Source: an uncultured Gemmatimonadota bacterium
GTDB taxonomy: Bacteria; GCA-2686955
Direction: 5' to 3'
DNA length: 64,000 bases
NCBI GenBank assembly: GCA_964490075.1
Contig: CAZBBK010000011.1
Location: forward strand, 1 to 64,000
Made by a program: the position numbers and the translations under genes. Within the stretch, counting starts at the first letter, position 1. The number at the start of each line of letters is the position of its first letter. Below are positions 3,622 to 32,078 of this stretch, one piece after another. The notes below the pieces were generated by a model, which was given only the letters and a program-made list of their open reading frames with translations, was not told the DNA's origin and did no database searches.

Positions 3622-4896
3622 TCAGCCCGCCGGGGCCTCCTCCACCCCCCGAGTCTCCTCGAGGACGATCCCCACCAGTTCCTCGACGCTCGAGATCTGT
3701 GCCCGCTCGACGAGCCAACGCCTGCCGATGCGAATGGCCAGTCGTTCAGCCACGGCGCGCCGATCGAGATCCTCGATGCTGGTGAGATCCCAGATGCTCA
3801 CGATTCCCATCATGCGGCGCAGCATCTTGGCCCCGCCGTGTCCCGCCGTATCGTGGAGCAGATCGGCCATGTAGCGCCGCCGATACTCGGCGAAGGCCTG
3901 GTCGCCCCCGGGGAAGTCCCAGTACGCATCCGGGACCAGCTCGCCGCGGTTGTTCTCGATCCAGAGTGTCTCGAACTTGCGTGCGAACTCGGACCAGACT
4001 CCGCGCACCAGGTCGAGCAGGTAGGACTGGTACTCGCGACGCATACCCGGATCGGAAGTATGTGCGTAATGGGAGAGATGGTTGAGCACCAGGTTTTCGA
4101 GGATTGCGCCCAGATCGAATCCCATCGGACCGTAGAAGGCGAACTCCGGATCGATCACCCGAGTGTCGCCTTCATTCACCATGATGCTCCCGGTGTGGAG
4201 ATCGCTGTGAATCAGCGCCTGGGCATGGGTCATGTAGCCGGCCTTCATCTCGGCGAGGGCGAGTTTGAGCGCCGCGTCGGCGCGCACCTCGCGAACCTCG
4301 GCGTCGATGCGCGGATTCCACTGGTTCTCCGGGGACTCCATGTAGGGATTGGTGAAGACAAAATCCTCCTGGATCTTGCACAGGTGTGGATTGATGAACT
4401 CGCCCATCAGCGTCTTTTTCTCGAGTCCGGTCAGGTAGAGATCGGAAGTGAAGAAGAGCACGCGGGCCGCGAAGCTGGAGATATGGTCCACGAAGAGCGG
4501 GAAGGTCTTGCGCGCGACCAGCGGCTTGCGCATGATCTCGTGCATCCGCAGATGCTCCATGATGACCAGCGACATCTCCGCGTCGGAGTCGAAGACCTGA
4601 GGGACCAGACCGGGAGCCAGCTCGTTGTACTTCAGCAGGGCCTGGGTCTCGAAACGCATCCTCTCCCGAGTCAGCGGCCACGACTCGCCGGCCACGCGCA
4701 GGTAGGGCAGCGCCTGCTTCAGAACCGCGGACTGGCTCGGCTCGGCGGCATTCTCGACGATGAACACCAGGTTCAGGTTGCCGTCCCCCACTTCCCTCGC
4801 GCGGAGCTGCGCTCCCTTCTCGAATACCGCCTCCATCGCTGGACAGGATCGGACGTAATCCACGACACTTTTTTCGTCCAGTGCTCGATAGGCCAT
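3622..4896 (-). CDS. mtnK: S-methyl-5-thioribose kinase
   Basis: EVGDGNLNLVF, KQALPY, LIHSDLHTGS, VIDPEFAFYGPMGFD. Confidence 0.93.
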   Translation of the reverse strand: MAYRALDEKSVVDYVRSCPAMEAVFEKGAQLRAREVGDGNLNLVFIVENAAEPSQSAVLKQALPYLRVAGESWPLTRERMRFETQALLKYNELAPGLVPQVFDSDAEMSLVIMEHLRMHEIMRKPLVARKTFPLFVDHISSFAARVLFFTSDLYLTGLEKKTLMGEFINPHLCKIQEDFVFTNPYMESPENQWNPRIDAEVREVRADAALKLALAEMKAGYMTHAQALIHSDLHTGSIMVNEGDTRVIDPEFAFYGPMGFDLGAILENLVLNHLSHYAHTSDPGMRREYQSYLLDLVRGVWSEFARKFETLWIENNRGELVPDAYWDFPGGDQAFAEYRRRYMADLLHDTAGHGGAKMLRRMMGIVSIWDLTSIEDLDRRAVAERLAIRIGRRWLVERAQISSVEELVGIVLEETRGVEEAPAG

Positions 4897-23572: not shown

Positions 23573-23581
23573 GGGCGGATC

Positions 23582-23681
23582 NNNNNNNNNNNNNNNNNNN
23601 NNNNNNNNNNNNNNNNNNNNNNNNNNNNNNNNNNNNNNNNNNNNNNNNNNNNNNNNNNNNNNNNNNNNNNNNNNNNNNNNN
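23582..23681. other. Assembly gap (100 N)
   Basis: Run of N with TGGGCGGATC on both sides. Confidence 0.99.
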
Positions 23682-23700
23682 TGGGCGGATCGCTACGCCC

Positions 23701-27588: not shown

Positions 27589-27994
27589 TCTGGGTTTCGA
27601 CGTAGCGCTTCTAGAGCGACGCACTTCGCGAAGAACCGCGGGCCCAGCGGGAGTCCGCCGGCCTCCGGGGATCCATCCGCGGTTGGGGGGGCGGTCTCGA
27701 CGGGACTTTTTCGCGTGCCCTTGCCCCTGCCCGACTCCGTTGCCCGAATCGGGCAGGGGCGCGGGCAGGTTCTGTTCCGTACCGGCCGCTCCCTGCGTAG
27801 AGGCTCGCTAGTTCCCGTCCACGAATGCAGGTCTGCGGCTGCCGGAGCGCGACGGGCCCAGCTGCAAGGCGGCGAAGCCGAAGGAATAGCAGGGCTATTT
27901 CGAGGTTTCGCCAACGCAGCAGATGGGTCCGTCCCGCCCGGCAGGCGCGGGGCTGCATTCGTGGATGGGGACTCGCTATATCGAAACGCCAGAA
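27589..27994. repeat. MITE/REP-like region bounded by inverted copies of the motif CGCTA(T/C)(A/G)TCGAAAC(N)CCAGA; contains a palindromic repeat unit (27628-27812)
   Basis: Motif at 27589-27607 and, inverted, at 27974-27994; internal TGCCCC/GGGGCA hairpin; the unit recurs at 30886-30986 plus 31802-31899. Confidence 0.75.
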
Positions 27995-30823: not shown

Positions 30824-30885
30824 CGTCCTCCTTTTTGGTTGGGCGTGATCATGGCACATTCCCGGCGCGCGGGACGAGATCGTCG

Positions 30886-30986
30886 GCGAAGAAGCGCGGA
30901 CCCAGCGGGAGTCCGCCGGCCTCCGGGGATCGATCCGCGGTGGGGGGGGCGGTCTCGACTGGACTTCTTCGCGTGCCCCTGCCCTG
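30886..30986. repeat. Left half of the second copy of the palindromic repeat
   Basis: Near-identical to 27628-27729. Confidence 0.85.
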
Positions 30987-31140
30987 TACCGTTTCTCCCA
31001 GCCTGGCTGGAGCCCCTGATCAGGGATGATCCAGTCAGGCCGGGCCAATCCTCCGGGAGCCACCTTTCTTGCCCGGCGCTTCGAGCGCCAGTACAGGGGT
31101 GACCCGACCATCGCGGCGGTCTTATCTATCCTTTGTAGCA
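30987..31140 (+). ncRNA. Candidate IS110 bridge/seek RNA (structured left end)
   Basis: Two stem-loops with internal loops; segments match the predicted circle junction; lies 5' of the recombinase gene. Confidence 0.5.
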
Positions 31141-31151
31141 AGGAGTTGGCT

Positions 31152-31385
31152 GTGGAAGAGGCGAGCGTACTGGTGTTCGTAGGAGTGGATTGGGCGACGC
31201 CTGAGCATCAGGTTTGTGCGATCGATCCCTCGGGCGAGCTGCTTGGAGAGGGCGTTGTCCCCCTCACCGCCCGGGAGCTCGAGAGGCTGTGCAAGTGACT
31301 CTTGGAGCTTTGCCACGGCGATCCGGGGCGAGTCTGGGTGGGCATCGAGATTCCGACCGGCAGGGTGGTCGAGATCCCACCGTAG
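31152..31385 (+). pseudogene. Truncated IS110 recombinase (DEDD/RuvC N-terminus)
   Basis: AGGAG RBS; VFVGVDWATPEHQVCAIDPSG...LCK*LLELCHGDPGRVWVGIEIPTGRVVE; in-frame TGA at 31296; no C-terminal domain. Confidence 0.8.
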
Positions 31386-31801
31386 CGAGCTCCAGGGATT
31401 CCGTCCGGTGTGCGGATCCGGAGTCGTAACGGAGCTCACTCCGGTGCGTGAGTGGATCGTTTCAACAGCCGTAGGGGCCGTCGAGCCTCTCGGGTGATTT
31501 GGTGGAGGGAGGCGTTTGTCCGCTGCCGATGGGGGCCCTGGCCGTCCCATCCGGCGGGAGGTCCGCGGCCCGGCGCAGGGTGGGTCGTGGAAGCGGAGGC
31601 CCTTTCGGCGACGGCACTTGGGGAGCTGCAGCCCATGCGGCGACTCCCCGCGGAAGCAGCGACGCTCTCGAGTCCTACATCTTCCGAGCCGCCGATGGCG
31701 TCCCCACCGGTCCACGACCGTCGATCGGCCGAAAACGATGCTCCCCAAGTGGCGTCCAGGGTCACAGCCCCGGAGTTTTTCGTTGCCTAATGGTGAGGAG
31801 T

Positions 31802-31899
31802 CCCTGCCCCTGCCCGACTTCGTTGCCCGAATCGGACAGGGGCAGGGGCAAGGGCAGGTTCTGTCCCGTACCGGCCGCTCCCTGCGTAGAGGTTCGCTA
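31802..31899. repeat. Right half of the second copy of the palindromic repeat
   Basis: Near-identical to 27718-27810. Confidence 0.85.
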
Positions 31900-32078
31900 T
31901 AGTGCACCATCGCCACCAACGCCCGATCGCCCTCGGCGGCGGCGTCGAGCGCCTCCTGGATGGTGGCGTGGTCGCCCGGAACCTCGATCGTCGCTGAGCG
32001 AACCGGAATCACCGACCAGATCGCCAGAACCGGTCCCCAAGCCGCGTCCTACCTGACACCTCGTGCTAGGTTGCGCAT
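31898..32078 (-). pseudogene. 5' remnant of another beta-helix secreted protein gene
   Basis: ATIEVPGDHATIQEALDAAAEGD matches the N-terminus of 293..1627; in-frame TAG at 32049; cut off by the repeat. Confidence 0.7.

Follow-up and report, generated by a model that had tools for sequence, protein, structure and literature searches.

The window analysed here, a 64,000-nucleotide stretch of DNA (contig C11; the assembly has 136 contigs and is 95% complete), contains an insert that is very probably a dead IS110-group element, of the kind in which a bridge RNA guides a DEDD/serine recombinase, inserted at a CC core and carrying deletions both in its recombinase gene and, over 70 nt, in its bridge RNA. 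The evidence consists of homology, termini, deletions, complementarity between guides and flanks, and covariation of RNA stems. In the history proposed, the active element would have entered its site by RNA-guided recombination, with CC as the core; its donor would have been a circle junction (...GGTGAGGAGT-CC-TGTACCG...), and its target the sequence c(c/t)tgc-CC-ctgccc, which lies within the hexamer tract next to the palindrome of a dispersed host repeat. In its intact form the bridge RNA has a 5' stem-loop and two further loops, one binding the target and the other the donor, and the -35 box of the right end would have met the -10 box of the left end, 17 nt apart, only in the circle. The window copy has lost about 300 recombinase codons together with more of the 3' region and, independently, 70 nt of the bridge RNA gene between its identical 13-nt distal hairpins; the remainder is one chimeric loop, with neither enzyme nor working guide producible. 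We infer both the circle and this order of decay.

Both flanks of the insert align with an unbroken copy of the host repeat at 27628-27812, so the window holds a filled site and an empty paralogue of it, as the earlier note had proposed on the grounds of a split repeat with CCCTG at both junctions. Those letters stand at 30982-86 and 31802-06: the left junction (30973-30991) reads ...gtgcccctg CCCTG TACCG..., and the right junction (31797-31818) reads ...GGAGT CCCTG cccctgcccgac.... The identification of the insert as an IS110-family relic inside a palindromic repeat, which comes from the same source, is borne out by a profile match, by the termini of relatives and by the alignment of the flanks. 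The tract of the host repeat usually reads ...ctgcccctgcccgac, with a six-base periodicity (25 repeat copies), and because this hexamer tract flanks both arms of the palindrome, the element is found in either orientation relative to the palindrome in the genome. The two repeat copies and the outer parts of the insert are arranged as follows:

27628..27812, + strand: uninterrupted paralogue of the host repeat, with a conserved left module, hexamer tract (cccNtg)n, palindrome core and right module
27721-27733, + strand: perfect target-like site in the empty repeat (motif match), with left target (LT) cttgc, core CC at 27726-27 and right target (RT) ctgccc
30885..30982, + strand: left part of the interrupted host repeat, ending in the left target half-site ...gcccctgc, of which 30982 is the last base
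30983..30984, + strand: probable left copy of the CC core, placed by the termini of relatives and the overlap of guides
30985..31801, + strand: decayed IS110-family element proper, 817 bp, from TGTACCG... to ...GGTGAGGAGT
31792..31801, + strand: right terminus GGTGAGGAGT, the left donor half-site, which would be matched by the left donor guide that is deleted here
31802..31803, + strand: probable right copy of the CC core, placed likewise by the termini of relatives and the overlap of guides
31804..31900, + strand: remainder of the interrupted host repeat on the right side, which opens with ctgccc, the right target half-site, and goes on with one further hexamer unit and the palindrome core

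The crossover is not placeable from this locus alone, because target and donor are alike around the core (CCCTG on both sides). Termini were taken from relatives, by comparing copies within nine other genomes that each hold several copies of full-length relatives. In eight of these nine genomes the elements start (C)C-TGTACC... and end ...GGTGGGGAGT-CC, with flanks that vary between copies; in the ninth (L070/L084) the element is not cleanly bounded. The two donor guides, left (...GAGTCC) and right (GTACAGG, the complement of CCTGTAC), overlap by exactly CC, and in the alignment of left-end RNAs all four guide positions hold CC or its complement GG beside the variable part. Because of the relatives' termini and of the overlap of the donor guides in CC, the core is placed at 30983-84 and 31802-03, the same dinucleotide being present on both sides of the element, and CC would be the crossover core dinucleotide. 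When the flanks are joined through one CC, they read ...ctgc-CC-ctgccc..., which is the normal six-base periodicity of the host tract. The element would have the same dinucleotide at both ends without a true target duplication, one CC being enough to restore the host tract. The donor circle junction would read GGAGT-CC-TGTACC, and the version given in the earlier note has one C too many, since the termini of the relatives and all four guides favour the shorter form.

Of the left flanks that a motif scan located in this genome, 14 of 15 end gc-CC, and of the right flanks, 8 of 12 read CC-ctgccc; the other four right flanks, and one variable position of the left flank, deviate from the consensus. 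Target-like sites of the form [CT]TGCCCCTGCC occur 49 times in the genome, once at 27721 in the empty repeat. Two different placements of the core were rejected. A five-base target duplication of CCCTG, with the previously proposed junction GGAGTCCCTGTACC, requires a target built of 5-nt units and an 18-nt spacer, whereas the relatives and the guide overlap favour CC; the 5-nt-unit target CTGCCCTGCCCGA is found 2 times in the genome, compared with 11 times for the 6-nt form. A CT core, with an 8-nt shared sequence (CCCTGCCC) and the junction GGAGTCCCTGCCCTGTACC, leaves 23 nt between the promoter boxes and conflicts with the termini of the relatives. The predicted circle junction has one CC, unlike junctions that contain CCCTG once or that read CCCTGCCCTG.

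The recombinase gene is represented in the window copy by two remnants:

31140..31385, + strand: remnant of the recombinase gene behind its ribosome-binding site AAGGAG (31140-45), with about 70 N-terminal residues of the DEDD domain recognisable
31386..31782, + strand: 3' remnant, consisting of an extreme C-terminal bit of coding sequence and the non-coding right end, homologous to the 3' parts of sister copies

The open reading frame starts with GTG at 31152 behind AAGGAG, is interrupted by an in-frame TGA at 31296-98 and ends with TAG at 31383-85, in agreement with a previous description of the recombinase as dead, with TGA at 31296 and truncation at about 31385. In the profile search that had been proposed for the peptide, the translation of 31152-31382 (P0001, with X at the TGA) matched positions 1-55 of the 155 in PF01548 (DEDD_Tnp_IS110) with 29.2 bits (E 9.2e-7), a score that barely reaches the cut-off of 29 bits and covers a third of the domain; the same peptide scored lower, 26.1 bits, in a genome-wide scan with PF01548. 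It also matched positions 1-55 of the NCBIfam model NF033542 ("IS110 family RNA-guided transposase") with 17.8 bits. The closest full-length protein in the protein collection, P0002, has 424 aa and both IS110 domains, and is 57% identical over the window fragment. Past about residue 70 of the window ORF the recombinase is unrecognisable, protein similarity between 31386..31782 and the full-length relative is not significant, and the C-terminal Tnp domain with the catalytic serine (PF02371) gave no match in the window copy. A fragment of PF02371 persists in the sister copy C18 (39.6 bits, cut-off 21.3). The missing Tnp domain of the window copy is a deletion, not the sign of a gene of another kind.

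BLAST searches with the ends of the element, which the earlier note had advised together with a tabulation of flanks, found 16 left ends and 12 right ends with the same termini in the genome, and a motif scan added a 17th left end on C74. A complete recombinase gene is present in no copy: tblastn with P0002 and searches with two Pfam models gave only pieces, which differ between copies. Seven contig ends lie inside copies of the element (C26, C119, the start of C24, C63, C46, the start of C21 and the end of C80), and therefore an intact copy may be unassembled. Because this is a metagenome assembly whose contigs are broken by the repeat family, the internal structure of the window copy could be a chimera of paralogues. 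The closest full-length relative among 80 loci kept from metagenome contigs is 62% identical, and a search with the left end in 60 related genomes returned two marginal matches only (E 7.6e-4 and 7.8e-4).

The left ends of the family encode a putative bridge RNA. An alignment of 28 left-end RNAs (26 from relatives and two from this genome) folds as two units, each consisting of a closing stem, an internal loop and a hairpin, and 22 of the 37 predicted pairs are preserved despite changes on both sides. In the left-end alignment of this genome, C14, C18 and C5 carry the full two-loop RNA. From start to end it consists of CGGGAGCCACC, the left target guide (TTCTGCCC in C14), the hairpin GCGCTTCGAGCGC, the right target guide TGGCAGGG with AC behind it, the closing stems, the left donor guide GTGAGGAGTCC, a second identical hairpin and the right donor guide GTACAGG; both target guides belong to the target loop and both donor guides to the donor loop. 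The left target guide is of the (T)TCTGCCC type in this family, TGGCAGGG complements CC-CTGCCA where the observed right flank is CC-ctgccc, and the AC after the right target guide is complementary to the two bases that close the right end, which is what handshake guides (PMC11208158) are expected to show. In C14, C18 and C5 the right target guides agree with the right flanks, and the left donor guides with the right end. Against a covariance model derived solely from the 26 relatives, C14 scored 134.5 bits, C18 121.5 bits and C5 73.4 bits over model positions 1-169. The region matched no Rfam family, the best hits being palindrome artefacts with E 0.6 or worse, and the pattern of target hairpin plus right target guide had 0 matches in metagenome contigs.

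The guide rule published for the bridge RNA of IS621 (PMC11208160) was applied to the 20 of the 28 aligned RNAs, C18 included, that have both flanks readable, with permuted pairings as the control. Left target guides matched left flanks at 69 of 120 non-core positions, against 47.9 for permuted pairings, and 69 was reached in 1 of 10000 permutations; for right target guides and right flanks the count was 103 of 120 against 58.0, which was reached in 0 of 10000. At these 20 loci the flanks follow the guides above permuted pairings, which validates the rule for the subfamily. Matches of the left guide in the relatives are imperfect (0 to 6 of 6), and one-base shifts of the alignment register explain some of this. 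L029 is a clear case, with the guides ACAAAACC and AAGATTGG and the target ACAAAA-CC-AATCTT.

In the window copy, the following parts of this RNA were recognised:

31001..31039, + strand: 5' stem-loop of the bridge RNA (stem 31002-11/31030-39), upstream of both guide loops, from folding; shared by every sister left end long enough to include it
31054..31074, + strand: 5' strand of the target-binding loop, consisting of the conserved CGGGAGCCACC and the left target guide TCTTGCCC (31067-74); aligns with the 5' strand of the target loop of relatives
31075..31089, + strand: single hairpin GGCGC-TTCGA-GCGCC, in which the distal hairpin of the target loop and that of the donor loop, identical to each other, have fused; it marks the deletion site
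31090..31120, + strand: 3' strand of the donor-binding loop, with the right donor guide GTACAGG at 31091-97, handshake at 31098-99 and the partnerless 3' half of the closing stem

The guide TCTTGCCC, which is LT plus the core, matches the left flank of the window copy at 8 of 8 positions if G-U pairs are allowed. GTACAGG at 31091-97 is the reverse complement of CC plus TGTAC, and 31076-31102 is identical (27/27) to the Myxococcota relatives L054, L055 and L058. The bridge RNA region is 163 nt long in C14 and C18, compared with 93 nt in the window copy: C14, C18 and C5 have two identical 13-nt hairpins 57 nt apart, whereas the window copy has one, without the 57 nt. By comparison with these sister copies, the loss of 70 nt is a deletion between 13-nt direct repeats that removed the right target guide and the left donor guide. 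The window copy scores 18 bits against the covariance model, over positions 12-67 only and with a single loop. The left end had been described as still structured and retained; it does derive from a bridge RNA, but with these 70 nt and two of the guides gone.

Particular structures and segments of the left end had been proposed as well. The minimum-free-energy fold includes the stem 31002-11/31030-39 and the hairpin GGCGC-TTCGA-GCGCC at 31075-89, both as described previously (z -2.15, with 6 of 200 shuffled sequences folding equally well). A third proposed stem, 31041-47/31100-06, does not occur in that fold and does not correspond to the closing stem of the homologues; in the covariance model, 31054-57 pair with 31103-06. 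The three segments put forward as guides are all present, GTACAGGG at 31091-98, GGAGCCCCTG at 31009-18 and CTTGCCC at 31068-74. CTTGCCC is the left target guide and GTACAGG(G) the right donor guide, but GGAGCCCCTG is no guide: it lies in the 5' stem-loop and was rejected as the left donor guide, the real guide being GTGAGGAGTCC, which is found in sister copies and deleted here. The 9/10 likeness of GGAGCCCCTG to the right junction may be chance. An arrangement of "swapped left guides", with the loops set for excision, was likewise rejected; the sister copies show the canonical two-loop RNA and the 70-nt deletion.

The same 70-nt deletion is found in C60, C17, C24, C8 and C13, and with the window copy it is carried by six of the nine copies that retain the region. 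The five-copy group has 10-14 differences per 190 positions from the intact C14 and 21-26 per 190 from the window copy. Because the group is nearer to C14 than to the window copy, the deletion would have arisen at least twice, and that of the window copy is probably independent of that of the other five. A pattern for the fused loop had 0 matches in the collection of genome contigs. This recurrence, with at least two origins, might be taken to mean that the chimeric one-loop RNA, in which the left target guide is joined to the right donor guide, is a selected product that guides or blocks recombination at left junctions. Every inserted copy has a left junction (LT-CC-RD) that this RNA matches, the covariance model still accommodates the fused RNA in a fold like that of the target loop, and binding of excision substrates across both loops is known (PMC13626964); however, five of the six carriers stem from one event, and a pair of identical 13-nt direct repeats with 57 nt between them is enough to cause the deletion repeatedly without selection. 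The right junction, moreover, has no partner loop, and no recombinase gene is left. Selection for the chimeric RNA is very improbable. It is also very unlikely that the half bridge RNA acts in trans on resident copies, by loading recombinase at left junctions and so favouring or blocking excision, and is kept for this reason, with the duplicated hairpin as a switch between two RNA forms. Deletion between direct repeats in a decaying element is the reading preferred here.

The insert had also been taken for a mini-element mobilised in trans. Both termini and both core copies of the window copy are intact, and a 22-bp donor with a bridge RNA in trans suffices for IS621 (PMC11208160), as would be expected of a non-autonomous mini-element with a functional bridge-RNA-like left end that was, or could be, mobilised in trans. 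Its left end is, however, without the right target guide and the left donor guide, and the assembled genome has no intact recombinase gene to act in trans. Its pattern of internal deletion is unique in the genome: 31260-31385 (query 279-404) matches nowhere else in the genome, and query positions 184-279 match C18 only. The proposal is unsupported for the window copy, and we consider it unlikely; the window copy is better read as a decayed relic.

Other deletion derivatives share breakpoints at five or six unrelated loci, a point that speaks for mobilisation in trans within the family. C60, C17, C24, C8 and C13 have in common a recombinase junction from about codon 8 to about residue 131, in addition to the 70-nt deletion, and C74, with the same junction, is a further-deleted member of this group. 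The flanks of C60, C17, C24, C8 and C13, the five that were compared (C74 being left out), are unrelated past a host repeat of about 140 bp. C84, C80 and C61 have a common junction at left-end position 51. Trans-mobilisation of these other derivatives in this genome is well supported; because they have neither enzyme nor working guide, both must have been supplied in trans. In Pseudomonas putida, the REP-inserted IS110-family element ISPpu9 is accompanied by a MITE-like derivative, MITEPpu9, which is thought to be moved in trans by the transposase (PMC12288879). MITEPpu9 is described there as having an sRNA gene and end boxes of its own, whereas the copies found here are plain internal-deletion derivatives of an element whose autonomous copy was not assembled.

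The two ends of the element also hold the halves of a candidate promoter:

30987..30992, + strand: -10-like hexamer TACCGT, which would meet the -35-like hexamer only in a circular or tandem form
31783..31788, + strand: -35-like hexamer TTGCCT, putative in function, followed by 13 nt of the right end

Joined at one CC, the ends give TTGCCT-N17-TACCGT. For the putative circle-junction promoter of the earlier note, the split boxes are conserved, with the -35 in the right end and the -10 in the left end, but the spacer is 17 nt rather than 18. The left-end hexamer TACCNT (TACCCT, TACCTT, TACCGT or TACCAT) is present in 35 of 36 distinct starts of relatives, and TTGCCT in 8 of 11 right ends of this genome. 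At the same offset in the right ends of relatives, TTGCTA, TTGATA or TTGACA makes up 28 of 57 motif matches, about 20 of the remaining matches being the site of the left donor guide within the left end and not right ends. The integrated element has CTTCTT at the -35 position. A promoter split across the ends of an IS110 element has been published (PMC11208160), and a split promoter in the window element would fit it.

The element resembles IS621 of E. coli, as described in PMC11208160 and PMC11208158, in several respects: a recombinase with DEDD and Tnp domains; a left end that encodes a bridge RNA, in which a 5' stem-loop is accompanied by two internal loops; 3'-side guides that complement the core and the right half-site; handshake positions, here the AC after the right target guide against the final GT of the left donor; the same core dinucleotide on both sides; a putative promoter split by the junction; and a target in a palindromic repeat. 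It differs from IS621 in having CC as the core where IS621 has CT, a recombinase that is no more than a distant relative, and two distal hairpins that are identical; unlike IS621, the window copy is dead and two of its four guides are missing. The P0002-like subfamily (L026-L105, from Alphaproteobacteria, Acidobacteriota, Myxococcota and other MAGs) has 57% identity over the N-terminal fragment and the same termini (TGTACC... and ...G(G/A)GGAGT) with a CC core, and shares the donor loop (27/27 bases with L054), the RNA architecture and the putative split promoter. Most of these relatives are guided to C-runs (left guide GCCCCC, right guide TGGGGGGG) and a few target AT-rich sites (L029), whereas the element of this genome is retargeted to ctgc-CC-ctgcc. 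The hairpins of the target loop and the donor loop differ in the relatives and are identical here. What the earlier note called a new bridge-RNA/target pair is not of a new kind: it obeys the rules reported for IS621 (PMC11208160), and its CC core is common to a widespread subfamily. CC-core elements may already stand among the published natural cores and guides.

The locus provides a natural and internally consistent case of the bridge-RNA rules outside the IS621 clade, with a CC core and a conserved donor, in which the target loop has switched from C-runs to a hexamer tract that belongs to a palindromic host repeat. It illustrates a route of decay as well: duplicated hairpins let the RNA gene delete both inner guides, and deletion derivatives that lack enzyme and guide went on multiplying, presumably with the help of both in trans. 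The locus is of use for catalogues of natural guides and targets and for the annotation of IS110 relics; the relic itself is instructive but ordinary, and raises no new question alone.

Parts of the insert are also covered by public contigs. Those assembled from four DNA runs of one study have joints across the insert with short sides or extra letters, which are compatible with paralogous repeats. The public contigs that span the fused hairpin each have 7-10 differences from the window and are therefore paralogues. One public contig over 31173-31409 has G instead of the A of the window's TGA at 31298, so the sample contains a paralogue or allele that is less decayed.

The host repeat into which the decayed IS110-family element is inserted is built of modules, as seen in its uninterrupted copy (window 27628-27812), its interrupted copy (30885-31900) and 25 palindrome cores found genome-wide. 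BLAST recovered 73 pieces of the repeat, 8 of them near full length.

Modules of the host repeat, in order
Left module: ..ggcggtctcgac..ttcgcgtg
Variable hexamer tract, after the left module: (cccNtg)n
Palindrome core, after the hexamer tract: cccgactccgTTGCCCGAATCGGGc
Mirrored tract, after the palindrome core: (atgggc)n
Right module, after the mirrored tract: at least two alternatives, one per copy

On contig C5 of the same genome, outside the window, a copy of this repeat at ~77300-77360 reads ...ctgcc-CTGTACCG-TTGCCCGAATCGGG, whereas the canonical repeat at the matching position reads ...ctgcc-CGACTCCG-TTGCCCG; from this difference it follows that 9 nt of the element are present in the C5 copy, the first 9 nt of the left end only. 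The C5 site resembles the scar of a lost element, and the loss would have occurred by deletion between the CCGTT of the left end and the ccgtt of the right flank.

Among P0002-like IS110 relatives in other phyla (loci L026-L105), both termini and the donor loop are almost unchanged across Alphaproteobacteria, Acidobacteriota and Myxococcota. In most members of this subfamily, the target guides (GCCCCC on the left and TGGGGGGG on the right) are for a homopolymer C run, and the insertion sites of most members are C runs. At one of these loci (L088, in a Paludibaculum MAG), TGTACC directly follows the ...GGGGAGTCC of one relative copy at 4441-4460, matching the predicted donor junction; the sequence past this TGTACC is not a left end, because no bridge-RNA motif was found within 330 nt of it.

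One of the three guide segments proposed in the earlier note, GGAGCCCCTG in the 5' stem-loop (window 31009-31018), is identical to the right junction, GGAGTCCCTG, at 9 of 10 positions, and to the right end of the sister copy on contig C18 at all 10. Judged by homology, this segment is not a guide.

A 250-letter contig from public DNA sequencing runs (X1-X3) spans window 31173-31409 with 9 differences altogether, among them G at 31298, where the window's TGA stop has its A, and one additional C after position 31375. The sample holds a paralogue or allele in which this part has decayed less. Elsewhere in the window, N, standing for withheld or unassembled bases, fill a stretch at ~23581-23682, as shown by an ORF translation with 34 consecutive X.
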